Origin: Escherichia coli
GTDB lineage: Bacteria > Pseudomonadota > Gammaproteobacteria > Enterobacterales > Enterobacteriaceae
Reading direction: 5' to 3' (one strand)
Assembly: GCF_003334255.1 (NCBI RefSeq)
Contig: NZ_QOWU01000027.1
Length of the DNA: 60,537 nucleotides
Positions 1 to 13,182 of the stretch are shown piece after piece. The translations under genes were made by a program, and so were the position numbers. Position 1 is the stretch's first letter, and the number at the start of each line of letters is the position of its first letter. The notes below the pieces were generated by a model that ran no database searches, had not been told where the DNA came from, and saw only the letters and a program-made list of their open reading frames with translations.

Positions 1-2351
1 AGTTATCGTGAGAGTAATTCATCGGCACGTTAAATCATATCAGGCGTAATACCACAACCCTTAAGTTAGCGCTTATGAGTAGTCTCCCCTCCCTGGCTTT
101 CGAAAAAGAAAAAATCGCCGATTCCGGTGCTGGATTTAGCGCCATTAGGCATTGAGCCAATCTGTTATCTGACAGAAGAAATCAGTAATCAACTTTTGGC
201 GAAATATATCTGGTATTCAAAACACATCACGGTTAGCCATGAAGAAAGTACTACCAACCTGTTGGCAAGGATGGGTTTTCAACGACGGATCGCTGGTACA
301 TATATTAAAGCTCCCGAAGCGGTAGTTGAGGCATGGCTAAATGAAGATTATTCAACCTTACTAAGTGAATTTAAGGTGTTTCATTCACCTACCGGGCATT
401 ATTGGCAGTTGGGGATTTTGACAACATTGCCGCTGGAGAAAGCAGTAAAAGCATGGAATGCCCTTACCCTATCTCCACATACCGATACCGAATACTCCAT
501 GTTACATTTTGGACTCAAAGGGTTACCTGGGTTAGTAAACTCACTTGCACGCTATCCACAAGAAGCCTTGCCCATCACGAATTACTTCGCAGCGAGTGAG
601 CTGGCACCTGCCGTCGCCCGCGCCTTCAACAAACTCAAAACCCTACGACAAGACGCCCGTAGCTGGCTGCTAAAATACCCGGAACATGCCATAACCGGCC
701 TGCTACCTGCGGCGCTCGGCAAAGCCGGTGAAGCCCAGGATAACGCCCGCGCTGCCTTGCGTATGCTTACCGAAAACGGTCATCAGCCATTACTGCAAGA
801 AATCGCCCGGCGTTATAACCAGCCGGAAGTAACAGACGCGGTGAACGCTCTGCTTGCGCTCGATCCCTTAGATAATCACCCGACAAAAATCCCCACTCTT
901 CCGGCCTTTTATCAGCCATCGCTCTGGACGCGCCCGGTATTAAAAGCAAACGCCCAATCACTGCCAGATAACGCCCTCCTCCACCTCGGTGAAATGCTCC
1001 GCTTCCCTCAGGAAGAGGCTCTATATCCGGGATTATTGCAGGTGAAAGATGCCTGTACCGCCGACTCACTGGCTGAATTTGCCTGGGATCTGTTTACCGC
1101 CTGGCAGACCGCTGGCGCGCCGTCGAAAGAAAGCTGGGCGTTCACTGCGTTAGGCGTTCTCGGTAACGATGACACCGCCCGCAAACTGACGCCATTAATC
1201 CGCGCCTGGCCTGGCGAATCTCAGCATAAACGTGCCACCGTTGGGTTGGATATTCTCGCTGCTATCGGTAGTGATATCGCCCTGATGCAGCTTAACGGCA
1301 TCGCCCAGAAACTGAAATTCAAAGCATTACAGGAGCGGGCAAAAGAAAAAATTGCCGACATTGCCGAAAGTCGCGAACTCACGGTGGCGGAGCTTGAAGA
1401 TCGGTTAGCACCGGATCTCGGTCTGGATGATAACGGTTCGCTGCTGCTGGATTTCGGCCCACGTCAGTTCACCGTCAGCTTTGATGAAACCTTAAAACCG
1501 TTTGTGCGCGATGCTTCCGGCAGCCGCCTGAAAGACCTGCCCAAACCAAACAAAAGCGATGATGAATCGCGGGCTGATGAGGCGGTTAACCGCTACAAAC
1601 TGCTGAAAAAAGATGCGCGTACCGTCGCCGCCCAGCAGGTGGCAAGGCTTGAATCCGCCATGTGCCTGCGCCGCCGCTGGTCACCAGAAAACTTCCAGCT
1701 CTTCCTGGTTGAGCACCCGATGGTTCGCCACTTAACCCGACGTCTGATTTGGGGCGTTTATAGCGCCGACAACCAGCTACAGGCGTGCTTTAGGGTAGCG
1801 GAAGATAACAGCTACAGCACCGCTGACGATGATCTTTTCACCCTGCCGGAAGGCGATATCTCTCTTGGTATTCCTCACGTTCTGGAAATATCACCGACGG
1901 ATGCTGCCGCCTTTGGTCAGCTTTTGCCGACTACGAACTGCTACCACCGTTCCGTCAGCTTGACCGTAACAGTTACGCCCTGACAGAAGCCGAGCGCAAT
2001 GCCAGCGAATTGATCCGCTGGGCAGGCAGAAAATGCCCGAGTGGTCGGGTAATGGGGCTGGCGAATAAAGGCTGGATAAAGGGCACCCCGCAGGATGCAG
2101 GCTGGATCGGCTGGATGATCAAACCTCTCGGTCGCTGGTCGTTAATCATGGAAATCGATGAAGGCTTTGCGGTAGGCATGTCGCCAGCCGAACTCAGCGC
2201 TGAGCAGCTCTTAAGCAAGCTGTGGCTATGGGAAGGCAAAGCAGAAAGATATGGCTGGGGGAGTAATTCAACACAGGAAGCGCAGTTCTCCGTAATCGAT
2301 GCCATCACCGCCAGCGAGCTAATTAACGATATTGAAGCCCTGTTTGAATAA
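1..2351 (+). pseudogene. molR: Decayed paralogue of yehI (large DUF4132-type protein; K-12 molR / yehG-yehH pseudogene). The window begins inside it.
   Basis: ORF 127-1983 aligns colinearly with the C-terminal two thirds of YehI (FAWDLFTAWQ.AGAP, DFGPRQFTV.FDE, RRWS..F). The frame breaks at T-run 1922-1925: gcttttgcc at 1920-1928 versus gctttttgcc at the equivalent yehI site 5618-5627. Homology (FADYELLPPFRQL...) then continues in the frame of ORF 2010-2351. There is an in-frame TGA at 76-78, and homologous residues upstream lie in another frame. Confidence 0.85.
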
Positions 2352-2360
2352 GGAAAGAGC

Positions 2361-5300
2361 ATGGACAAGGAATTACCGTGGCTGGCGGATAACGCCCAAC
2401 TGGAACTGAAATATAAAAAAGGCAAAACGCCGCTCAGTCATCGTCGCTGGCCGGGCGAACCAGTGTCCGTTATCACTGGAAGTCTCATCCAGACATTGGG
2501 TGATGAATTGCTACAAAAAGCTGAGAAGAAAAAAAACATTGTCTGGCGTTATGAGAATTTTTCACTGGAGTGGCAGTCCGCCATCACGCAGGCCATCAAC
2601 TTGATCGGCGAACACAAACCCTCAATCCCGGCCCGGACAATGGCGGCGCTAGCCTGTATCGCGCAAAATGACAGCCAACAGTTGCTCGACGAAATCGTCC
2701 AACAAGAGGGGCTGGAATATGCGACTGAGGTGGTGATTGCACGCCAGTTTATTGCGCGGTGTTATGAGAGTGATCCTCTGGTAGTGACATTGCAGTATCA
2801 GGACGAGGATTATGGCTATGGTTATCGCTCAGAAACCTATAACGAATTCGATCTCCGACTGCGTAAGCATCTCTCTCTGGCAGAGGAAAGCTGCTGGCAG
2901 CGTTGCGCCGACAAACTCATTGCCGCACTACCAGGAATAACCAAAGTTCGCCGCCCTTTTATTGCGCTGATCCTCCCGGAAAAACCAGAAATAGCCAATG
3001 AGTTGGTAGGCCTTGAATGCCCGCGAACTCATTTTCATTCTAAGGAGTGGTTAAAAGTTGTTGCTAATGACCCCACAGCGGTGAGAAAACTCGAACACTA
3101 CTGGAGCCAGGATATATTTAGCGATCGAGAAGCCAGCTACATGTCGCATGAAAACCACTTCGGCTACGCGGCCTGCGCCGCCCTTTTGCGCGAACAAGGA
3201 CTGGCAGCCATTCCGCGCCTCGCGATGTATGCCCATAAAGAAGATTGCGGCAGTCTGCTGGTACAAATTAACCATCCGCAAGTCATCCGCACCTTGCTAC
3301 TGGTGGCTGATAAAAACAAACCCAGCCTGCAACGTGTGGCTAAATACAGTAAAAACTTCCCCCATGCGACGCTCGCCGCACTGGCAGAACTGCTGGCGTT
3401 AACAGAACCACCAGCCCGCCCTGGTTATCCAATCATCGAAGACAAAAAGCTGCCTGCACAGCAAAAAGCACGCGATGAATACTGGCGTACGCTGTTACAA
3501 ACGCTGATGGCATCGCAGCCACAACTGGCAGCAGAAGTGATGCCGTGGTTAAGTACTCAACCCCAGTCAGTGCTGAAGAGTTATTTATCGGCACCGCCCA
3601 AACCGGTTATTGATGGCACCGATAACAGCAATCTGCCAGAAATCCTCGTTTCACCACCGTGGCGTAGTAAGAAAAAAATGACAGCTCCACGTCTTGATTT
3701 GGCACCGCTCGAATTAACTCCGCAAGTTTACTGGCAACCAGGCGAACAAGAGAGGCTTGCCGCCACTGAGCCTGCCCGTTATTTCAGCACGGAATCTCTT
3801 GCGCAACGCATGGAACAAAAAAGTGGACGAGTTGTATTACAGGAACTGGGTTTTGGGGATGATGTATGGCTGTTTCTGAATTATATACTCCCCGGAAAAC
3901 TGGATGCTGCACGCAATTCACTCATTGTTCAGTGGCATTACTACCAGGGGCGGGTTGAAGAGATCCTGAATGGCTGGAACTCCCCGGAAGCACAATTAGC
4001 AGAACAGGCGCTCCGCAGCGGTCACATAGAAGCGTTAATTAACATATGGGAAAATGACAACTACTCACGTTATCGTCCGGAAAAGAGTGTCTGGAACCTG
4101 TATTTATTGGCACAGTTGCCGCGTGAGATGGCTTTGACCTTCTGGCTGCGTATCAATGAGAAAAAGCATCTGTTCGCGGGTGAGGACTATTTTCTCAGTA
4201 TCCTCGGATTGGATGCGCTACCAGGTCTGCTGTTGGCTTTTTCACATCGTCCAAAAGAAACATTTCCGTTAATTTTAAATTTCGGCGCAACAGAACTGGC
4301 CCTGCCCGTTGCCCGCGTCTGGCACCGTTTTGCGGGCCAGCGTAATCTGGCTCGCCAGTGGATTTTACAATGGCCGGAACATACGGCTACTGCACTTATT
4401 CCACTCGTCTTTGTTAAACCCTGCGACAACAGCGAAGCGGCATTATTTGCCCTTCGTTTACTGTATGAACAAGGACATAGTGAATTACTGCAAACGGTTG
4501 CAAACCGCTGGGATCGCGCTGATATGTGGCCAGCCCTGGAAAAAATACTTACCCAGAACCCGATGGAAATTTACCCGGCACGCATTCCAAAAGCCCCTGA
4601 TTTCTGGCATCCGCAAATGTGGTCCAGGCCGCGCCTTATCACTAATAATCAAACTGTTACCAATGACGCTCTGGAAATTATCGGCGAAATGCTGCGCTTT
4701 ACCCAGGGGGGACGTTTTTATAGCGGGCTGGAACAACTGAAAACGTTCTGCCAGCCACAAACGCTGGCAGCTTTTGCCTGGGATCTCTTCACTGCGTGGC
4801 AACAAGCTGGTGCCCCCGCAAAAGACAACTGGGCATTTCTGGCGTTAAGTCTCTTTGGTGACGAAAGCACGGCACGGGATCTGACGACACAGATCCTCGC
4901 CTGGCCACAAGAAGGCAAATCTGCCCGTGCTGTCAGCGGCCTGAACATCCTTACCCTGATGAATAATGATATGGCGCTGATACAGCTGCATCATATATCG
5001 CAACGGGCTAAATCCCGCCCCTTACGTGATAACGCGGCGGAATTTCTTCAGGTGGTCGCAGAAAATCGCGGGCTAAGCCAGGAAGAGCTAGCGGACAGAT
5101 TAGTCCCAACCCTGGGCCTTGATGATCCGCAGGCGTTGAGTTTTGATTTTGGTCCCCGGCAGTTTACCGTTCGCTTCGATGAAAATCTCAACCCGGTTAT
5201 CTTTGATCAGCAAAACGTTCGCCAGAAAAGCGTTCCCCGTTTGCGCGCCGATGACGATCAACTGAAAGCGCCCGAGGCACTGGCCCGACTAAAAGGGCTA

Positions 5301-5993
5301 AAAAAAGATGCTACTCAGGTGAGCAAAAACCTGCTCCCGCGTCTTGAAACGGCCCTACGTACCACCCGACGCTGGTCGCTGGCAGATTTTCATTCTCTGT
5401 TTGTTAATCATCCCTTTACCCGTCTGGTTACCCAGCGATTAATATGGGGGGTTTATCCGGCAAATGAACCGCGTTGTTTACTCAAAGCCTTTCGTGTGGC
5501 CGCAGAGGGGGAGTTCTGCAATGCGCAAGATGAGCCAATTGACCTGCCTGCGGACGCTCTGATTGGCATTGCCCACCCGTTAGAAATGACAGCAGAAATG
5601 CGCAGTGAATTTGCACAGCTTTTTGCCGATTACGAAATTATGCCGCCTTTTCGCCAGTTGTCGCGCCGCACGGTGCTGCTCACACCTGACGAGTCAACCA
5701 GTAACAGCCTGACTCGCTGGGAAGGTAAATCCGCTACCGTTGGGCAACTTATGGGAATGCGATACAAAGGCTGGGAGTCAGGCTATGAGGACGCATTTGT
5801 CTATAACCTGGGTGAGTACCGGCTGGTCCTTAAGTTTTCACCCGGTTTTAACCACTACAATGTTGATAGCAAAGCGCTAATGAGCTTCCGTTCTCTTCGA
5901 GTGTACCGTGACAATAAATCCGTCACTTTTGCCGAACTTGATGTGTTTGATTTGAGTGAGGCGTTAAGCGCACCTGACGTCATTTTCCATTAA
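2361..5993 (+). CDS. yehI: Large (1210 aa) uncharacterised DUF4132-type protein YehI
   Basis: Single long ORF with AAGGA Shine-Dalgarno 8 nt upstream of the ATG. Length and sequence match my recollection of K-12 YehI. It is the intact paralogue of the upstream pseudogene. Confidence 0.93.
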   Translation: MDKELPWLADNAQLELKYKKGKTPLSHRRWPGEPVSVITGSLIQTLGDELLQKAEKKKNIVWRYENFSLEWQSAITQAINLIGEHKPSIPARTMAALACIAQNDSQQLLDEIVQQEGLEYATEVVIARQFIARCYESDPLVVTLQYQDEDYGYGYRSETYNEFDLRLRKHLSLAEESCWQRCADKLIAALPGITKVRRPFIALILPEKPEIANELVGLECPRTHFHSKEWLKVVANDPTAVRKLEHYWSQDIFSDREASYMSHENHFGYAACAALLREQGLAAIPRLAMYAHKEDCGSLLVQINHPQVIRTLLLVADKNKPSLQRVAKYSKNFPHATLAALAELLALTEPPARPGYPIIEDKKLPAQQKARDEYWRTLLQTLMASQPQLAAEVMPWLSTQPQSVLKSYLSAPPKPVIDGTDNSNLPEILVSPPWRSKKKMTAPRLDLAPLELTPQVYWQPGEQERLAATEPARYFSTESLAQRMEQKSGRVVLQELGFGDDVWLFLNYILPGKLDAARNSLIVQWHYYQGRVEEILNGWNSPEAQLAEQALRSGHIEALINIWENDNYSRYRPEKSVWNLYLLAQLPREMALTFWLRINEKKHLFAGEDYFLSILGLDALPGLLLAFSHRPKETFPLILNFGATELALPVARVWHRFAGQRNLARQWILQWPEHTATALIPLVFVKPCDNSEAALFALRLLYEQGHSELLQTVANRWDRADMWPALEKILTQNPMEIYPARIPKAPDFWHPQMWSRPRLITNNQTVTNDALEIIGEMLRFTQGGRFYSGLEQLKTFCQPQTLAAFAWDLFTAWQQAGAPAKDNWAFLALSLFGDESTARDLTTQILAWPQEGKSARAVSGLNILTLMNNDMALIQLHHISQRAKSRPLRDNAAEFLQVVAENRGLSQEELADRLVPTLGLDDPQALSFDFGPRQFTVRFDENLNPVIFDQQNVRQKSVPRLRADDDQLKAPEALARLKGLKKDATQVSKNLLPRLETALRTTRRWSLADFHSLFVNHPFTRLVTQRLIWGVYPANEPRCLLKAFRVAAEGEFCNAQDEPIDLPADALIGIAHPLEMTAEMRSEFAQLFADYEIMPPFRQLSRRTVLLTPDESTSNSLTRWEGKSATVGQLMGMRYKGWESGYEDAFVYNLGEYRLVLKFSPGFNHYNVDSKALMSFRSLRVYRDNKSVTFAELDVFDLSEALSAPDVIFH

Positions 5994-6000
5994 AACACAG

Positions 6001-6022
6001 CGGGCAGTGATGCAACTGCCCG
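6001..6022 (+). terminator. Hairpin just after the yehI stop (CGGGCAGT / ACTGCCCG, 6-nt loop); a weak terminator or attenuator
   Basis: Perfect 8-bp inverted repeat read directly from the sequence. The downstream tract is only weakly T-rich. Confidence 0.3.
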
Positions 6023-6053
6023 TTATCAACACGACTTACCAGCGGGGAAAGCG

Positions 6054-6371
6054 ATGATCGTGCAAAAAGAGCTGGTTGCTATTTACGATTATGAGGTCCC
6101 TGTACCTGAAGATCCGTTTTCCTTCAGACTTGAGATCCATAAATGCTCTGAATTATTTACAGGTTCCGTCTATCGACTGGAGCGATTCCGGCTACGTCCA
6201 ACATTTCATCAACGTGATCGAGAAGATGCTGACCCGCTAATAAATGATGCGTTGATTTATATAAGAGATGAGTGTATTGATGAGCGGAAATTACGAGGTG
6301 AATCACCTGAAACTGTAATAGCAATTTTTAATCGTGAACTACAGAATATATTCAACCAAGAAATAGAATAA
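6054..6371 (+). CDS. yehK: Small uncharacterised protein YehK (105 aa)
   Basis: ORF with GGGGAAAG upstream of the ATG. It is visibly more AT-rich than the flanking genes. Matches recalled K-12 YehK. Confidence 0.8.
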   Translation: MIVQKELVAIYDYEVPVPEDPFSFRLEIHKCSELFTGSVYRLERFRLRPTFHQRDREDADPLINDALIYIRDECIDERKLRGESPETVIAIFNRELQNIFNQEIE

Positions 6372-6448
6372 TATACTCTAAATAATTCAAATTGGTCCGA
6401 TCCGGCGCAACGTCCCAATGGCCTGGATTATAAATCTCATTATCTTAA

Positions 6449-6477
6449 TTGCAACGGGGTCCAGCCGTGGTTATAAT
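6449..6477 (+). promoter_or_regulatory. Near-consensus sigma70 promoter in the yehK-yehL intergenic region
   Basis: TTGCAA (6449-6454), a 17-bp spacer, then a perfect TATAAT (6472-6477). Confidence 0.5.
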
Positions 6478-6483
6478 TCGTTC

Positions 6484-6570
6484 GTTGGAACACGATGTTG
6501 CACAGGCTGTGGTGTTAGGCCTGAAAATAGTAAATAAAAGAACCTGCCTCACCAGCAGGTTTTTTTATTT
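6484..6570 (+). ncRNA. Candidate ~85-nt sRNA or terminated leader transcript upstream of yehL
   Basis: Predicted start ~7 nt after the TATAAT. Internal hairpin CAGGC/GCCTG (6503-6507 / 6519-6523), an A/U-rich linker (6524-6540), and an intrinsic terminator ACCTGC/GCAGGT (6542-6547 / 6555-6560) followed by a T-run (6560-6566). Confidence 0.35.
6542..6570 (+). terminator. Rho-independent terminator
   Basis: 6-bp GC-rich stem, 7-nt loop, then seven T residues; read directly from the sequence. Confidence 0.7.
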
Positions 6571-6677
6571 ACTGTGATCTGCTTTCCAGATATTTTTCGC
6601 TCAAACAACTAATGCGCCAAACATTTATTGCGCGTAAAATATCGTTTATTTCATTAATACATTTCAGGGATGAATAT

Positions 6678-7766
6678 ATGTCACCGCAGAATAATCATCT
6701 GCAGCGTCCGCCTGCTGCTGTGTTATACGCCGATGAACTGGCAAAATTAAAACAAAATGATAACGCACCTTGCCCGCCCGGTTGGCAGTTAAGTTTGCCT
6801 GCGGCCCGTGCTTTTATCCTTGGCGACGAAGCGCAAAATATCAGCCGTAAAGTGGTGATTAGCCCCTCCGCTGTCGAACGTATGTTAGTCACTCTTGCTA
6901 CCGGCCGCGGTTTGATGTTGGTGGGGGAACCGGGTACCGCAAAATCTCTTCTTTCTGAATTACTGGCAACCGCTATTAGCGGCGATGCCGGGTTAACCAT
7001 CCAGGGCGGGGCATCTACCACCGAAGATCAAATCAAGTATGGCTGGAACTACGCCCTGCTTATCAATCATGGTCCGTCAACGGAAGCGCTGGTCCCTGCC
7101 CCGCTTTATCAGGGAATGCGCGACGGCAAAATCGTCCGTTTCGAAGAGATAACGCGTACACCGCTGGAAGTGCAGGACTGTCTGTTAGGTATGCTTTCTG
7201 ACAGGGTGATGACGGTGCCGGAACTCACTGGTGAAGCCAGTCAGCTCTATGCGCGAGAAGGCTTTAATATTATTGCCACTGCCAATACCCGCGATCGCGG
7301 CGTCAATGAAATGAGTGCTGCGCTAAAGCGTCGCTTCGATTTTGAAACGGTTTTTCCGATTATGGATTTCGCCCAGGAGTTGGAACTGGTCGCCAGTGCT
7401 TCGGCGCGTTTGCTGGCCCATAGCGGTATTCCGCATAAAGTGCCTGACGCGGTACTGGAATTACTGGTCCGCACCTTCCGCGATCTGCGTGCCAACGGCG
7501 AAAAGAAAACGTCAATGGATACACTGACAGCGATTATGTCCACCGCTGAAGCCGTGAACGTGGCCCATGCTGTGGGCGTCCGCGCCTGGTTTTTAGCGAA
7601 TCGCGCGGGGGAGCCTGCCGACCTGGTGGAATGTATTGCCGGAACCATCGTCAAAGATAACGAAGAAGATCGCGCGCGTCTGCGCCGTTACTTCGAACAG
7701 CGTGTCGCCACACATAAAGAAGCTCACTGGCAGGCTTATTATCAAGCCCGCCACCGCCTGCCGTGA
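6678..7766 (+). CDS. yehL: MoxR-family AAA+ ATPase YehL (362 aa)
   Basis: Walker A GEPGTAKS (6924-6947), a RFEE Walker-B-like motif, ATANTRD sensor-1 and the AALKRRF MoxR/AAA_5 signature. The ATG at 6678 has AGGGA upstream. The longer ORF start at 6612 lacks support. Confidence 0.92.
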   Translation: MSPQNNHLQRPPAAVLYADELAKLKQNDNAPCPPGWQLSLPAARAFILGDEAQNISRKVVISPSAVERMLVTLATGRGLMLVGEPGTAKSLLSELLATAISGDAGLTIQGGASTTEDQIKYGWNYALLINHGPSTEALVPAPLYQGMRDGKIVRFEEITRTPLEVQDCLLGMLSDRVMTVPELTGEASQLYAREGFNIIATANTRDRGVNEMSAALKRRFDFETVFPIMDFAQELELVASASARLLAHSGIPHKVPDAVLELLVRTFRDLRANGEKKTSMDTLTAIMSTAEAVNVAHAVGVRAWFLANRAGEPADLVECIAGTIVKDNEEDRARLRRYFEQRVATHKEAHWQAYYQARHRLP

Positions 7767-7776
7767 GGAAAGATGC

Positions 7777-10056
7777 ATGAGCGAGCCGTTAATTGTCGGC
7801 ATCCGGCATCATAGTCCGGCCTGCGCCCGGCTGGTGAAATCGTTAATCGAAAGCCAGCGGCCACGATACGTGTTGATTGAAGGCCCGGCTGATTTTAATG
7901 ACCGGGTAGACGAACTGTTTTTAGCCCACCAGCTTCCGGTAGCTATTTACAGTTATTGCCAGTATCAGGACGGTGCAGCCCCCGGGCGTGGTGCCTGGAC
8001 GCCATTTGCTGAATTTTCGCCGGAGTGGCAGGCGCTACAAGCCGCACGTCGCATTCAGGCACAAACTTACTTCATCGATTTGCCTTGCTGGGCGCAGAGT
8101 GAAGAAGAGGACGATTCGCCTGATACGCAAGATGAAAGCCAGGCCTTACTGCTGCGTGCCACCCGCATGGATAACAGCGATACCCTGTGGGATCACTTGT
8201 TCGAAGATGAAAGCCAGCAAACTGCATTACCCTCTGCGCTGGCGCACTATTTTGCCCAACTGCGGGGCGACGCCTCCGGCGATGCGCTCAATCGTCAGCG
8301 CGAAGCCTTTATGGCCCGCTGGATTGGATGGGCGATGCAGCAAAATAATGGCGACGTGTTAGTTGTCTGCGGTGGCTGGCACGCTCCGGCACTGGCAAAG
8401 ATGTGGCGCGAATGCCCTCAGAAAATTAACAAGCCAGAATTGCCCTCGCTGGCAGATGCCGTTACAGGTTGTTATCTCACACCCTACAGTGAAAAGCGCC
8501 TTGATGTGCTGGCAGGATACCTTTCAGGAATGCCTGCCCCGGTATGGCAAAACTGGTGCTGGCAGTGGGGCTTGCAGAAGGCCGGTGAACAACTGCTAAA
8601 AACTATCCTTACCCGTTTGCGCCAGCACAAATTGCCCGCTTCTACCGCGGATATGGCTGCCGCTCATCTGCATGCGATGGCGCTGGCACAGTTGCGCGGT
8701 CATACACTACCGTTACGCACTGACTGGCTGGATGCCATAGCAGGCTCGCTGATTAAAGAAGCCCTGAACGCGCCGTTGCCGTGGAGCTATCGCGGCGTTA
8801 TTCATCCCGATACCGATCCGATTCTGCTAACGTTGATAGACACATTAGCGGGTGACGGATTCGGTAAACTTGCCCCTTCTACGCCACAACCGCCTCTGCC
8901 AAAAGATGTCACCTGCGAACTGGAACGTACCGCAATCTCCCTTCCGGCGGAGCTTACCTTAAATCGCTTTACCCCCGATGGGCTGGCGCAAAGTCAGGTG
9001 TTACATCGGCTGGCAATACTGGAGATCCCTGGGATTGTACGCCAGCAGGGAAGTACACTGACACTTGCAGGCAACGGTGAAGAACGCTGGAAATTAACCC
9101 ACCCGCTTAGCCAGCATGCGGCATTGATTGAGGCCGCCTGCTTTGGCGCCACGCTCCAGGAAGCCGCACGCAATAAATTAGAAGCCGATATGCTGGACGC
9201 GGGTGGAATCGGCTGCATCACCGCATGTCTTAGCCAGGCGGCGTTAGCGAGTCTGGCGTCCTTCAGTCAACAATTACTGAAGCAACTCACGTTATTAATC
9301 GCCCAGGAAAATCAATTTGCCGAAATGGGCCCGGCGCTGGAAGTGCTATATGCCTTATGGCGGCTGGATGAAATTAGCGGTATGCAAGGTGCGCAGATAT
9401 TACAAACGACGTTATGCGCGGCTATCGATCGCACGCTGTGGCTGTGTGAATCCAACGGCAGACCGGATGAAAAGGAGTTTCACGCTCACCTGCATAGCTG
9501 GCAAGCGTTGTGCCATATTCTGCGCGATCTGCATAGCGGCGTTAATTTACCCGGCGTTTCTCTTTCTGCGGCGGTAGCCTTACTGGAGCGACGCAGTCAG
9601 GCGATTCATGCCCCGGCGCTGGATCGCGGCGCGACTCTTGGTGCGCTGATGCGTCTGGAACATCCCAACGCCAGTGCCGAAGCGGCGCTGACAATGCTGG
9701 CGCAGTTATCCCCGGCACAATCCGGCGAGGCGCTGCACGGTTTGCTGGCATTAGCCCGTCATCAACTGGCCTGTCAGCCGGCATTTATCGCCGGTTTCAG
9801 CAGTCATTTAAATCAACTAAGTGATGCCGATTTTACCAATGCCCTGCCCGATTTACGCGCGGCAATGGCCTGGCTACCGCCACGAGAACGCGGGACGCTG
9901 GCGCATCAGGTGCTTGAGCATTATCAACTGGCGCAACTTCCCGTTTCGGCACTGCAAATGCCGTTGCATTGTCCACCGCAAGCCATTGCACATCATCAAC
10001 AACTCGAACAGCAGGCACTGGCATCGCTGCAACACTGGGGAGTTTTCCATGTCTGA
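7777..10056 (+). CDS. yehM: Uncharacterised 759-aa protein YehM
   Basis: ATG 10 nt after the yehL stop, with GAGGAA upstream. N-terminal motifs are VGIRHHSP and VVCGGWHAP. The C-terminal ~500 aa are Leu/Ala-rich and look helical. Confidence 0.9.
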   Translation: MSEPLIVGIRHHSPACARLVKSLIESQRPRYVLIEGPADFNDRVDELFLAHQLPVAIYSYCQYQDGAAPGRGAWTPFAEFSPEWQALQAARRIQAQTYFIDLPCWAQSEEEDDSPDTQDESQALLLRATRMDNSDTLWDHLFEDESQQTALPSALAHYFAQLRGDASGDALNRQREAFMARWIGWAMQQNNGDVLVVCGGWHAPALAKMWRECPQKINKPELPSLADAVTGCYLTPYSEKRLDVLAGYLSGMPAPVWQNWCWQWGLQKAGEQLLKTILTRLRQHKLPASTADMAAAHLHAMALAQLRGHTLPLRTDWLDAIAGSLIKEALNAPLPWSYRGVIHPDTDPILLTLIDTLAGDGFGKLAPSTPQPPLPKDVTCELERTAISLPAELTLNRFTPDGLAQSQVLHRLAILEIPGIVRQQGSTLTLAGNGEERWKLTHPLSQHAALIEAACFGATLQEAARNKLEADMLDAGGIGCITACLSQAALASLASFSQQLLKQLTLLIAQENQFAEMGPALEVLYALWRLDEISGMQGAQILQTTLCAAIDRTLWLCESNGRPDEKEFHAHLHSWQALCHILRDLHSGVNLPGVSLSAAVALLERRSQAIHAPALDRGATLGALMRLEHPNASAEAALTMLAQLSPAQSGEALHGLLALARHQLACQPAFIAGFSSHLNQLSDADFTNALPDLRAAMAWLPPRERGTLAHQVLEHYQLAQLPVSALQMPLHCPPQAIAHHQQLEQQALASLQHWGVFHV

Positions 10057-11185
10057 ACTGAACGATCTTCTGACCACCCGTGAGCTACAACGCTGGCGAT
10101 TAATTCTTGGCGAAGCGGCAGAAACGACGCTTTGTGGGCTGGATGACAACGCCCGGCAGATAGACCACGCGCTGGAGTGGCTGTATGGGCGCGATCCTGA
10201 ACGGCTCCAGCGTGGTGAACGCTCCGGTGGATTAGGTGGCTCAAATCTCACCACCCCTGAGTGGATCAACAGTATTCACACGCTGTTTCCGCAACAGGTG
10301 ATTGAGCGGCTGGAAAGCGATGCCGTACTGCGCTACGGCATTGAAGATGTGGTGACAAATCTCGACGTGCTGGAACGTATGCAGCCTTCCGAAAGCCTGC
10401 TACGCGCCGTTTTGCACACCAAACATCTGATGAATCCCGAAGTACTGGCTGCCGCCCGCCAGATAGTGCGCCAGGTTGTTGAAGAAATTATGGCGCGACT
10501 GGCAAAGGAAGTTCGCCAGGCTTTTTCTGGTGTCCGCGATCGCCGTCGCCGTTCATTTGTTCCACTGGCGCGAAACTTTGATTTCAAAAGTACTCTGCGC
10601 GCCAACCTGCAACACTGGCACCCGCAACACGGCAAGTTGTATATCGAATCCCCCCGCTTTAACAGCCGCATTAAACGCCAAAGCGAACAATGGCAACTGG
10701 TCTTACTGGTTGATCAAAGCGGCTCGATGGTCGATTCGGTGATCCACTCTGCGGTGATGGCGGCCTGTTTGTGGCAGTTACCCGGCATTCGTACCCATCT
10801 GGTGGCGTTTGACACAAGCGTCGTTGATCTCACGGCAGACGTTGCCGATCCGATAGAGTTATTAATGAAAGTGCAATTAGGCGGCGGAACCAATATCGCC
10901 AGTGCCATGGAGTATGGTCGGCAACTTATTGAACAACCTGAAAAAAGCGTCATTATCCTAGTGAGCGATTTTTATGAAGGGGGTTCATCATCATTGCTGA
11001 CGCATCAGGTGAAAAAGTGTGTCCAGAGCGGCATCAAAGTGCTGGGACTGGCAGCGCTCGATAGCACAGCAACGCCTTGCTATGACCGCGATACGGCCCA
11101 GGCGCTGGTTAATGTCGGCGCACAAATAGCCGCCATGACACCGGGCGAGCTGGCATCATGGCTTGCGGAGAATCTTCAGTCATGA
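10049..11185 (+). CDS. yehP: von Willebrand factor A (VWA) domain protein YehP (378 aa)
   Basis: MIDAS DQSGS (10712-10726), with downstream GGGTNI and VSDFYEGG. The start overlaps the yehM stop by 8 nt (ATGTCTGA). Confidence 0.92.
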   Translation: MSELNDLLTTRELQRWRLILGEAAETTLCGLDDNARQIDHALEWLYGRDPERLQRGERSGGLGGSNLTTPEWINSIHTLFPQQVIERLESDAVLRYGIEDVVTNLDVLERMQPSESLLRAVLHTKHLMNPEVLAAARQIVRQVVEEIMARLAKEVRQAFSGVRDRRRRSFVPLARNFDFKSTLRANLQHWHPQHGKLYIESPRFNSRIKRQSEQWQLVLLVDQSGSMVDSVIHSAVMAACLWQLPGIRTHLVAFDTSVVDLTADVADPIELLMKVQLGGGTNIASAMEYGRQLIEQPEKSVIILVSDFYEGGSSSLLTHQVKKCVQSGIKVLGLAALDSTATPCYDRDTAQALVNVGAQIAAMTPGELASWLAENLQS

Positions 11186-13182
11186 ATTCACTACGTCCGG
11201 AATTATTAGAACTGACACCGCAGGCACTGACGGCGTTAAGCAATGCCGGTTTTGTTAAGCGCAGTCTTAAGGAACTGGAAAATGGCAACGTCCCGGAAAT
11301 CAGCCATGAGAACGGCGCTTTAATCGCCACCTTCAGTGACGGTGTCCATACCCAGCTGGCGAACGGCCAGGCACTGAAAGAGGCTCAGTGCACCTGTGGG
11401 GCCAGCGGCATGTGCCGTCATCGCGTGATGCTGGTGTTAAGTTATCAACGACTTTGTGCTACCGCCCAGCCTACGGGAAAAGAAGAGGAATGGGATCCGG
11501 CAATCTGGCTGGAAGAACTGGCTACCCTTCCCGATGCCACCCGCAAACGCGCACAGGTATTGGTCGCTAAAGGCATCACCATTGAGTTGTTATGTGCGCC
11601 GGGTGAAATTCCCTCTGCCCGCTTACCGATGAGCGATGTGCGTTTTTATTCCCGCAGCAGTATTCGTTTCGCCCGTTGTGATTGTATTGAAGGCACACTT
11701 TGCGAACATGTCGTACTGGCTGTGCAGGCCTTCGTCGAGGCCAAAGCGCAGCAAGCGGAATTTACTCATTTAATCTGGCAGATGCGCAGCGAACACGTCA
11801 CATCATCTGACGATCCGTTTGCCAGCGAAGAGGGCAACGCGTGTCGTCAATATGTTCAGCAATTAAGCCAGACATTATGGCTTGGCGGCATCAGCCAGCC
11901 GCTTATTCACTACGAGGCAGCATTCAACCGCGCATTGCAGGCGGCAGAGACCTGCAACTGGCGCTGGGTGAGTGAATCGCTACGGCAACTGCGCGCCAGC
12001 GTTGATGCCTTCCACGCCCGCGCCAGCCACTATAATGCCGGAGAATGCTTACATCAGCTTGCGGCATTAAACAGTCGATTAAATTGCGCACAAGAGATGG
12101 CCCGGCGCGACAGTATTGGTGAAGTTCCTCCTGTGCCGTGGCGCACGGTCGTTGGCTCTGGCATTGCCGGAGAAGCAAAGCTTGATCATCTGCGGCTGGT
12201 GTCTTTAGGTATGCGTTGCTGGCAGGATATTGAGCATTATGGTTTACGCATCTGGTTTACCGATCCCGACACCGGCAGTATTTTGCACCTTTCGCGCAGT
12301 TGGCCGCGAAGTGAACAGGAAAACTCACCGGCAGCTACGCGTCGGCTGTTTAGTTTTCAGGCTGGCGCACTGGCGGGCGGGCAAATTGTTTCACAAGCAG
12401 CAAAACGCAGTGCCGATGGCGAGCTGCTGTTAGCTACCCGCAACCGCTTAAGCAGCGTTGTGCCGCTGTCGCCTGATGCCTGGCAAATGTTGAGCGCGCC
12501 GTTACGCCAGCCGGGCATTGTGGCTTTGCGGGAATATTTACGCCAGCGTCCCCCCGCCTGCATACGGCCTCTTAATCAGGTCGATAACTTATTTATTCTG
12601 CCGGTCGCTGAGTGTATTTCGCTCGGTTGGGATAGCAGCCGCCAGACGCTGGATGCGCAGGTAATCAGCGGCGAAGGTGAAGATAATCTGCTGACGTTAT
12701 CACTGCCAGCCTCAGCCAGCGCGCCTTATGCCGTTGAACGCATGGCGGCGCTTTTGCAACAAACAGACGACCCCGTGTGTCTGGTTTCTGGCTTTGTCAG
12801 TTTTGTTGATGGGCAATTGACACTGGAACCACAGGTAATTATGACAAAGACTCGTGCCTGGGCGCTGGACGCTGAAACTGCGCCTGTGGCACCACTACCT
12901 TCTGCCAGCGTTTTGCCTGTGCCGTCTACTGCTCATCAGTTGCTGATGCGCTGCCAGGCGTTACTTATTCAACTGCTCCATAACGGCTGGCGCTATCAGG
13001 AACAGAGCGCTATTAGTCAGGCAGAGTTGCTGGCGAATGACCTCACCGCGGTGGGTTTTTATCGGCTGGCACATGTGTTGGGGCAATTTCGTAATACAGA
13101 AAGCGAGGCACGGGTAGAAGCAATAAATAACGGTGTTTTGCTTTGCGAACAATTATTCCCCATGCTTCAGCAACAAGGATGA
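11182..13182 (+). CDS. yehQ: SWIM zinc-finger protein YehQ
   Basis: Two CxCx5CxH SWIM motifs: CTCGASGMCRH (11389-11421) and CDCIEGTLCEH (11677-11709). The ATG overlaps the yehP stop in an ATGA junction. The start choice (11182 versus 11158) is inferred from that coupling. Confidence 0.88.
   Translation: MNSLRPELLELTPQALTALSNAGFVKRSLKELENGNVPEISHENGALIATFSDGVHTQLANGQALKEAQCTCGASGMCRHRVMLVLSYQRLCATAQPTGKEEEWDPAIWLEELATLPDATRKRAQVLVAKGITIELLCAPGEIPSARLPMSDVRFYSRSSIRFARCDCIEGTLCEHVVLAVQAFVEAKAQQAEFTHLIWQMRSEHVTSSDDPFASEEGNACRQYVQQLSQTLWLGGISQPLIHYEAAFNRALQAAETCNWRWVSESLRQLRASVDAFHARASHYNAGECLHQLAALNSRLNCAQEMARRDSIGEVPPVPWRTVVGSGIAGEAKLDHLRLVSLGMRCWQDIEHYGLRIWFTDPDTGSILHLSRSWPRSEQENSPAATRRLFSFQAGALAGGQIVSQAAKRSADGELLLATRNRLSSVVPLSPDAWQMLSAPLRQPGIVALREYLRQRPPACIRPLNQVDNLFILPVAECISLGWDSSRQTLDAQVISGEGEDNLLTLSLPASASAPYAVERMAALLQQTDDPVCLVSGFVSFVDGQLTLEPQVIMTKTRAWALDAETAPVAPLPSASVLPVPSTAHQLLMRCQALLIQLLHNGWRYQEQSAISQAELLANDLTAVGFYRLAHVLGQFRNTESEARVEAINNGVLLCEQLFPMLQQQG

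Follow-up and report, generated by a model that had tools for sequence, protein, structure and literature searches.

The yeh locus

A 60,537-nucleotide (nt) stretch of an Escherichia coli genome (assembly GCF_003334255.1, contig NZ_QOWU01000027.1; hereafter the window) opens inside a group of giant DUF4132-type genes, molR (also yehH) and yehI, and the relationship of this array to the yehLMPQ cassette that follows it is the subject of this analysis. Window bases 1-6600 match the chromosome of E. coli G1/2 (NZ_CP060083.1) at 100%, and the metG-yehR region of nearly all of 5426 complete E. coli genomes at 92-99% identity. The RefSeq gene order is metG, a WGR pseudogene fragment, an IS421 transposase, a 'DUF4132 domain-containing protein' pseudogene, yehI, yehK, yehL, yehM, yehP, yehQ and yehR. 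The annotation places the molR remnant, yehI and yehK on the strand of yehLMPQ, as an earlier interpretation made from the DNA letters alone (the sequence-only reading) had noted. The individual genes carry annotations and their decay in K-12 was known before, which makes the locus itself unremarkable.

Four plus-strand open reading frames (ORFs) were confirmed, at 127-1983, 2010-2351, 2361-5993 and 6054-6371. The first two belong to a 3' remnant of molR (78-2351), a pseudogene that covers codons 507-1264 and exhibits 95.7% identity to nt 1521-3795 of the intact allele of strain EC01307; the third is an intact yehI of 1210 amino acids (aa), and the fourth is yehK, a 105-aa orphan. The remnant is preceded by the right end of an insertion sequence (IS), IS421 (1-77, minus strand), and yehK is followed by a spacer (6372-6677) and then by yehL (6678-7766), yehM (7777-10056), yehP (10049-11185) and yehQ (11182-13182), all on the plus strand.

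The ORF at 127-1983 is colinear with YehI residues 557-1108 (41% aa identity, E 8e-137), and the ORF at 2010-2351 extends the alignment to YehI residues 1117-1163 (28% identity, E 1e-6). The intact MolR of EC01307 (1264 aa) exhibits 37% identity to YehI across 1186 residues and possesses approximately 108 additional N-terminal residues, and the molR remnant ends 9 nt before the start of yehI. These alignments identify molR and yehI as true tandem paralogues, and the tandem duplication with a dead molR and an intact yehI that the sequence-only reading had proposed is borne out against both YehI and the EC01307 allele.

Linkage of the DUF4132 array to yehLMPQ across bacteria

A forward scan was performed on one genome per GTDB species with a 13-sequence alignment as the query, each scan in this analysis covering its 80 best-scoring loci. 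The forward scan gave 79 loci in Pseudomonadota, Myxococcota, Actinomycetota and Acidobacteriota, those in Pseudomonadota comprising Gammaproteobacteria, Betaproteobacteria and one alphaproteobacterial metagenome-assembled genome, and the cassette was sought at the 79 loci by tblastn with YehL, YehM, YehP and YehQ from the window. At 44/79 loci all four cassette genes followed directly downstream in colinear order and on the same strand, and at 4/79 they lay upstream of the DUF4132 gene, so that 48 of the 79 carry a colinear same-strand YehL-M-P-Q cassette. A partial cassette was present at six loci, mostly at contig ends, the contig was too short for judgement at nine, and no cassette was found within 10 kb at the remaining 16, several of which are long tandem arrays that occupy the whole flank. 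As a control, the four queries were applied to the other 47 kb of the window, where they gave no match.

In the reverse direction, a metagenome scan was performed with a YehM alignment; of the loci from outside E. coli that extend 1.5 kb or more ahead of YehL, 26/28 had a DUF4132 gene upstream. The distance from the last DUF4132 stop codon to the inferred YehL start has a median of 43 nt (interquartile range 20-114; 76 non-E. coli loci); the array-to-cassette gap is 684 nt in the window and approximately 1.5 kb in strains that carry zor-orz genes. The conserved order and strand, the short median gap and the reverse test argue for a single module made up of array and cassette, a reading that is strongly supported within the best-scoring loci covered by the scans. 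The larger functional neighbourhood with yehLMPQ that had been suggested from the window therefore agrees with co-occurrence in both directions, and the opposite outcome that had been allowed for, in which DUF4132 genes elsewhere show no association with such cassettes, is contradicted by the same counts.

Beyond the module, gene content differs among 16 diverse loci and consists largely of housekeeping genes of metabolism or transport, with no other constant neighbour. A defence gene lies within 10 kb at approximately 3/16 of these loci (JetC, MADS and a weak AriA match). The family is nearly absent from viral contigs, where two loci were found: the first matches YehI at 95% identity and the second is a fragment of 24 residues. 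Array size ranges from one to seven copies per 23-kb locus, with at least seven tandem paralogues at the maximum. In Massilia mucilaginosa (NZ_WHJH01000004.1; L019 and L034, overlapping ranges within 183875-223962), seven and five WGR-DUF4132 core copies were observed on one strand of 23-25-kb loci, and the YehLMPQ cassette was absent within reach of the flanks of these arrays.

Domains and predicted folds of the array and cassette proteins

Membership of DUF4132 (PF13569) is defined by a gathering score of 27 bits. The intact MolR of EC01307 possesses a WGR domain at residues 6-69 (63.6 bits, E 1.9e-17) and DUF4132 at residues 988-1173 (171.8 bits), and YehI (2361-5993) possesses DUF4132 alone, at residues 954-1138 (nt 5220-5774; 161.8 bits, E 2e-47). 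The molR remnant in the window aligns in this region up to its frameshift. No match to WGR (PF05406) was found in YehI, and the WGR-coding part of molR lies past IS421. At E <= 0.01, Pfam identifies only WGR and DUF4132 in the intact MolR, with no helix-turn-helix (HTH) and no Mop/TOBE or other molybdate-binding domain, in line with the earlier observation that the molybdate-regulator label corresponds to no visible motif. The sole NCBIfam match was at the WGR level, with a family that is unrelated and a score well under the cut-off.

An AlphaFold2 model of YehI (mean predicted local distance difference test score 85.8) predicts an alpha-solenoid over approximately residues 1-900 followed by a conserved C-terminal alpha/beta domain, within which DUF4132 lies. 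A Foldseek search with the full model returned only HEAT/ARM solenoids (CAND1, importins, the PP2A A subunit and condensin HEAT subunits), with weak significance and low TM-scores. Relatives of YehI number 5720 cluster representatives at the 50%-identity level (E <= 1e-3), and across these the conserved module spans approximately residues 530-1135, with a WGR domain at the start of most relatives. The family profile matched only WGR domains in the PDB (2ra8, E 6e-22; the WGR domain of PARP3, 2eoc, E 0.002), and sequence searches of the PDB with YehI, YehM and YehQ gave no match. Three E. coli proteins of 869-1124 aa (P0020, P0050 and P0120) possess WGR and DUF4132, yet over 46-69% of the query their identity to YehI is 92-96%, a pattern suggestive of recombination between the paralogues that produced MolR-YehI hybrids.

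YehL is a MoxR-type AAA+ ATPase (Pfam AAA_5, 119.4 bits, E 1.6e-34) with the motifs GEPGTAKS (Walker A) and VRFEEI. It is the name-giving member of the MoxR YehL subfamily (PMC3893208), and its AAA_5 domain, its Walker A and B motifs and the presence of the VWA gene yehP two genes downstream agree with that placement. Its nearest solved relatives are the AAA modules of midasin, and the bpMoxR Pfam model scores 18.4 bits against a cut-off of 27. The longest yehL ORF starts at an ATG at 6612 (384 aa) and the RefSeq start is at 6678 (362 aa), the 22 additional codons lying in the AT-rich spacer. YehP is a VWA protein (VWA_CoxE, 238 bits, E 8e-71) whose metal-ion-dependent adhesion site (MIDAS) motif of the form DxSxS is present as DQSGS at residue 222, and a MIDAS motif was found in 7/8 diverse YehP homologues checked. 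YehQ is a SWIM zinc-finger protein (E 3.7e-7) with two CxCxnCxH motifs, at residues 70-80 and 166-176.

YehM contains DUF5682 (E 6e-98), and its motifs RHHSPACA and VVCGGYHAP, both N-terminal, are invariant across phyla in the alignment, which suggests an enzyme active site in DUF5682. The RHHSP and GGYH motifs also raised the idea of a TraB/PrgY/GumN (TraB/TIKI-like) enzyme; this found no support, as only one of 12 homologues had a Pfam match, at E 4.1, and hhalign against E. coli YbaP gave a probability of 0.2%. A literature search found no characterised member of the YehL subfamily, and at E <= 0.01 PADLOC-DB 2.0 gave no match for MolR, YehI, YehK, YehL, YehM, YehP or YehQ.

Inactivation of molR by IS421 and a T-run slip

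Aligned globally with the intact EC01307 allele, window 78-2351 shows a sole indel, one missing T at 1922-1925, where TTTT stands against CAGCTTTTTGCC in EC01307. This -1 frameshift, from a T5 run to T4, splits the plus-strand remnant into its two ORFs, and RefSeq describes the remnant as 'frameshifted; incomplete; missing N-terminus'. The slip was correctly located in the sequence-only reading, as were the five T retained by yehI, except that these occupy 5620-5624 and not 5621-5625. A second lesion had been proposed there, a nonsense TGA at 76-78 with homology continuing upstream in another frame. The TGA is present, but it consists of the last two bases of the IS421 right end and the first target base; bases 1-77 are the end of IS421, and no molR homology was found upstream of base 78 inside the window.

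Bases 1-77 are 100% identical to IS421 copies of unrelated plasmids, and insertion-free E. coli genomes match the window from base 78 onward only. The RefSeq IS421 transposase gene lies upstream, beyond the window, at 7913-9022 of the G1/2 locus (L001), its end corresponding to window base 22. Insertions of the IS4 family, to which IS421 belongs, are recognised by terminal inverted repeats and a direct target duplication of approximately 11-13 bp. At molR, perfect terminal inverted repeats (CATAAGCGCTAACTTAAGGGTTG / CAACCCTTAAGTTAGCGCTTATG) are accompanied by the transposase gene and by an 11-bp target-site duplication, AGTAGTCTCCC (molR nt 1521-1531), which is present at both junctions, at window 78-88 and at L001 7732-7742. 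In G1/2, molR nt 1-1531 lie to the left of the 1.3-kb IS and nt 1521-3795 to the right, the two BLAST segments overlapping by 11 nt. The WGR-coding N-terminal half of molR lies beyond IS421, outside the window, and this 5' fragment carries no extra stop or indel; the remnant in the window corresponds to the C-terminal 60% of MolR.

The IS421 junction in molR is present in 61 complete E. coli genomes, pig enterotoxigenic E. coli strains among them, and the T4 allele is present in six, namely the IS-bearing siblings G1/2, G6/7 and G8 and three others. The wider distribution of the junction shows that the IS insertion came first and that the slip is secondary decay, and the recurrence of T4 in three sibling assemblies disfavours a random sequencing error. 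Together, the alignments show that molR is dead through IS421 insertion followed by a -1 frameshift in the T-run.

Variation of the array within E. coli

The array was compared across E. coli, as the sequence-only reading had proposed, and molR proved to be intact in several strains and the copy number to be two or three. A third paralogue, 'A', lies upstream of molR in 1630/5426 complete genomes (approximately 30%), and molR is orthologous to the middle gene of the three-copy strains. E. coli M00057 (NZ_CP061339.1, L010 4866-16079) possesses three intact tandem paralogues of 1265, 1253 and 1210 aa. In K-12, molR carries a stop at codon 275 and a 1-nt (+1) insertion at nt 2845, and in EJN001 the stop alone. 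Two copies are dead in O157:H7 (A with a stop and a frameshifted middle gene), where yehI is intact; AMSCJX02 has an internal stop in yehI, and Combat13F7 has frameshifts in both the middle gene and yehI. Other lesions of the array in E. coli include one IS3 and one IS5 insertion, and in strain 405 (NZ_CM132945.1, L091 7285-10977) a truncated yehI is fused to a truncated yehM by a deletion that begins within yehI, takes out its 3' end together with yehK, the spacer and yehL, and extends through the 5' end of yehM. A resistance transposon, TnMB1860, has been reported in the region in sublineage L1a of sequence type ST131 (PMC9334617). Many independent inactivations have thus occurred at the array in E. 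coli.

The alleles are mosaic, with C-terminal regions of approximately 450 residues that are 90-99% identical and regions at residues ~100-700 that are only 32-76% identical, and the synonymous substitution rate (dS) exceeds 1 in the divergent blocks (residues 1-700). Pairwise ratios of nonsynonymous rate to synonymous rate (dN/dS) are 0.17-0.27 for yehI and 0.16-0.30 for molR, compared with 0.03-0.04 for metG and yehL and 0.10-0.11 for yehM, yehP and yehQ. The paralogues are under weaker constraint than their neighbours, without gene-wide positive selection, which was not seen for any gene, as no gene-wide dN/dS reaches 1. The earlier suggestion of a rapidly evolving specificity component therefore holds for the mosaic alleles and the weaker constraint and fails for gene-wide diversification. 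Window 3561-3860 (YehI residues ~401-500) is the sole 100-codon block with dN equal to or above dS between E. coli alleles (0.07/0.06 and 0.05/0.04, both small numbers), and it may mark a locally relaxed or positively selected solenoid surface.

yehK and the zor-orz spacer

The plus-strand gene yehK (6054-6371) has a GC content of 38.7% (28% at third codon positions), compared with 51-56% for its neighbours, and matches no Pfam, NCBIfam or PADLOC family. Among 74 YehK homologues, every named one belongs to Shigella or Escherichia, with E. albertii, E. marmotae and E. fergusonii represented. yehK was absent from Klebsiella, Serratia and all other loci examined, and plasmid searches gave only E. 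coli records, several of them chromosome-sized. The presence of yehK throughout the genus argues against a recent insertion within E. coli; the AT-richness described in the sequence-only reading, and the insertion that it had raised as a possibility, are upheld, the insertion being lineage-specific.

The spacer at 6372-6677 (38.6% GC) is a remnant of the zor-orz type I toxin-antitoxin locus, as alignment with a strain carrying zorO-orzO-zorP-orzP shows. It contains an orphan OrzP antitoxin small RNA (sRNA) at 6491-6566 on the plus strand (Rfam RF02083, OrzO-P; 99.9 bits against a gathering score of 60, covering the full model, 1-76), for which a scan gave its own promoter-like site (6449-6477) and a terminator hairpin (6541-6561). 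Other E. coli strains possess two orz genes and two genes for 29-aa Zor toxins at the yehK-yehL spot (e.g. L010, M00057), and the alignment indicates that the window keeps the orzP unit and a short 5' piece of zor, both toxins and one orz copy being gone. No ORF for a 29-aa Zor was found in the window, and the sRNA thus stands without a cognate divergent zor toxin. The zor-orz locus has been published as lying 'between yehI and yehL' (PMC2887945), and an orphan sRNA, OrzPmg, has already been described in MG1655 (PMC11264685), where it occupies the same yehK-yehL position as the window orzP. A promoter-like site on the minus strand (6427-6454, TTGCAA-16-TATAAT), directed antisense into the yehK 3' end, is probably a leftover zorP promoter. 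An antisense signal in the yehI-yehK intergenic region was reported in a sigma-S run-off study (PMC3141248).

The zor-orz insert is Escherichia-specific and lies outside the DUF4132 module. Taken with the distribution of yehK and the short gap at other loci, the comparison identifies yehK and zor-orz as a genus-old Escherichia insertion that split an ancestrally tight operon.

Regulation of the array and the cassette

In E. coli with two or three copies, the first array gene is preceded, at a distance of 27 nt, by a conserved LexA-type box, AACTGGATAAAATTACAGGG, which at L001 occupies 6185-6204 and so falls outside the window. A near-identical box is present at the same place in Klebsiella; none was found in Serratia or more distant taxa. 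The strict LexA pattern CTGT-N8-ACAG has no match in the source locus, the annotated SOS box deviating from it by one mismatch. A published list of SOS-box genes includes molR (PMC6590174), and the molR promoter is activated by BglJ-RcsB without repression by H-NS (PMC3950696). yehL and yehM are derepressed in hns/stpA mutants, with an 'intergenic' H-NS binding region in their vicinity (PMC3686432), and the AT-rich tract of the spacer adjoins yehL and yehM. The array promoter lies upstream of IS421, outside the window, and hence yehI is separated from it in G1/2.

A proposed mechanism and its alternatives

The preferred interpretation, to which a probability of roughly 45% is given, is that the WGR-solenoid-DUF4132 array and YehL, YehM, YehP and YehQ form a conserved module in which the solenoid proteins are interchangeable specificity subunits of a MoxR-VWA machine. 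The layout consists of tandem giant proteins of WGR, HEAT-like alpha-solenoid and DUF4132 domains followed by YehL, YehM, YehP and YehQ. The variable solenoid, together with WGR where present, would bind a ligand, possibly a nucleic-acid structure, and the conserved C-terminal domain of the solenoid proteins would dock on the invariant machine. The MIDAS site of YehP would then grip a partner, the YehL ring would remodel or release the partner with ATP, and YehM and YehQ would provide the output. In midasin, CbbQ-CbbO and RavA-ViaA, a MIDAS-mediated grip is combined with ATP-driven remodelling, and it is from such established MoxR-VWA pairs and midasin that the holding step of YehP and the remodelling step of YehL are inferred. 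In E. coli, the array would be under SOS and BglJ-RcsB control and the cassette silenced by H-NS, and the module would be dispensable and repeatedly decaying.

With their conserved C-termini, their variable bodies and their presence several to a cassette, the solenoid paralogues are best read as interchangeable specificity subunits. The control by SOS, BglJ-RcsB and H-NS, along with the dispensability and the repeated decay, is more in keeping with an accessory system for stress or conflict response than with a housekeeping role. That the ligand is a nucleic-acid structure, an idea drawn from WGR, SWIM and SOS control, and that the module serves in stress or conflict sensing, is speculative. 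A broader proposal, tentative and on balance doubtful, is that the module represents a MoxR-VWA-based sensing system that is as yet undescribed and is spread over at least four phyla, in which tandemly diversified solenoids would recognise different DNA-damage or invader signals (possibly nucleic acids) and share a common ATP-driven output, the K-12 yeh locus being a decayed copy.

Several points weigh against the proposed mechanism. No component has a known biochemical or genetic function, and none has a recognisable effector domain (nuclease, protease, TIR etc.) or a PADLOC match. Remote branches of the family may show a weaker array-cassette association than the best-scoring loci, and the 16 loci with room and no cassette within 10 kb indicate that some DUF4132 genes could be solo or served in trans. 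The flanks of the 16 diverse loci are mostly housekeeping, with defence genes in about three only, and dN/dS values of 0.16-0.30 denote purifying and not diversifying selection. In addition, a sensor role and a client role for the solenoid proteins are indistinguishable from sequence.

The main rival is that the module is a housekeeping-type maturation chaperone, with the giant solenoids as clients or scaffolds that YehL and YehP would assemble or load with a cofactor, much as CoxD-CoxE, NorQ-NorD and CbbQ-CbbO serve their own enzymes; the variation in E. coli would be neutral decay of a function dispensable to the species. This explanation draws on the VWA_CoxE domain as the best Pfam match of YehP, on the characterised MoxR-VWA pairs, which act mostly as maturation factors (PMC3893208), and on the metabolic or transport flanks, the dN/dS values everywhere below 1 and the near-absence of the family from viral contigs. 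However, Pfam and NCBIfam detect neither enzyme domains nor cofactor-binding domains among the proteins, control by LexA and H-NS is unlike that of routine metabolism, and up to seven or more divergent paralogues per cassette, with deeply mosaic alleles in one species, would be unusual for a client of a dedicated chaperone. A maturation chaperone is considered unlikely. It is more improbable still, and largely refuted, that the DUF4132 genes and yehLMPQ are independent neighbours brought together in E. coli by accident of history, with molR and yehI acting alone, for example as DNA-damage-responsive DNA-binding proteins. The 684-nt gap in E. coli with its terminator-like hairpin and sRNA gene, the different regulators of the two parts and the 16/79 loci without a cassette within 10 kb would be explained in this way, but the order, strand and 43-nt median gap kept in Pseudomonadota, Myxococcota, Actinomycetota and Acidobacteriota, the 26/28 loci of the reverse test and the lack of any other conserved neighbour would not.

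Two further explanations concern molR itself and are both highly improbable. The lesions might be assembly artefacts in a strain whose molR is intact, the sequence-only reading having allowed that the frameshifts could be sequencing errors; yet an IS421 junction with a perfect 11-bp duplication in 61 complete genomes cannot be a base-calling error, T4 recurs in the assemblies of G1/2, G6/7 and G8, and even with T5 IS421 would still split molR. Least credible of all is that MolR is a regulator of molybdate metabolism, as its legacy name, still on some records, would have it: a ModE-like regulator combines an HTH with Mop/TOBE, whereas Pfam gives WGR and DUF4132 only, molR is broken in K-12, and the conserved partners are MoxR, DUF5682, VWA and SWIM genes and not molybdenum genes.

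Implications

The comparison brings together five or more E. coli 'y-genes' as a single conserved module in many bacterial phyla, with an unusual layout in which a variable array of giant paralogues would feed one MoxR-VWA machine. The uncharacterised YehL subfamily of MoxR ATPases thereby gains concrete candidate partners, the legacy annotation 'molybdate metabolism regulator' is corrected, and yehK and zor-orz emerge as a later insertion splitting an operon. K-12 is a poor model for the system because molR is dead and the cassette is silenced there, and natural strains with fully intact three-paralogue loci, such as M00057, are suited to functional tests.

Comparison with known systems

PARP-type WGR proteins and bacterial WGR fusion proteins (2ra8; PARP3, 2eoc) share an N-terminal WGR domain with intact MolR and most family members, but the family lacks a PARP catalytic domain and YehI lacks WGR. 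The established MoxR/VWA pairs (RavA-ViaA, CbbQ-CbbO, NorQ-NorD and CoxD-CoxE, and midasin/Rea1) resemble the cassette in that YehL is a dynein/midasin-related AAA_5 ATPase and YehP a VWA protein with an intact MIDAS. They differ from it in their partners, which in the yeh module are DUF5682, a SWIM protein and the WGR-solenoid-DUF4132 array, with no evident enzyme client.

The MoxR-vWA 'ternary' conflict systems (Kaur, Burroughs, Iyer and Aravind 2020, PMC7159879; Esr pathway, PMC13622651) likewise combine an invariant MoxR and vWA core with a variable component of superstructure-forming repeats, and they share with the yeh module the expanded paralogues and the occurrence in large-genome Actinomycetota and Myxococcota. 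By Pfam, however, the yeh module is without third components such as a beta-propeller or FtsH and without effector domains, bpMoxR scores under its cut-off, and the defence-island context appears weak. SWIM, WGR, YehL, DUF4132 and the yeh architecture are absent from the text of Kaur et al. 2020 (PMC7159879). Although the yeh architecture departs from the defining features of this group, the MoxR-vWA ternary system is the closest published concept.

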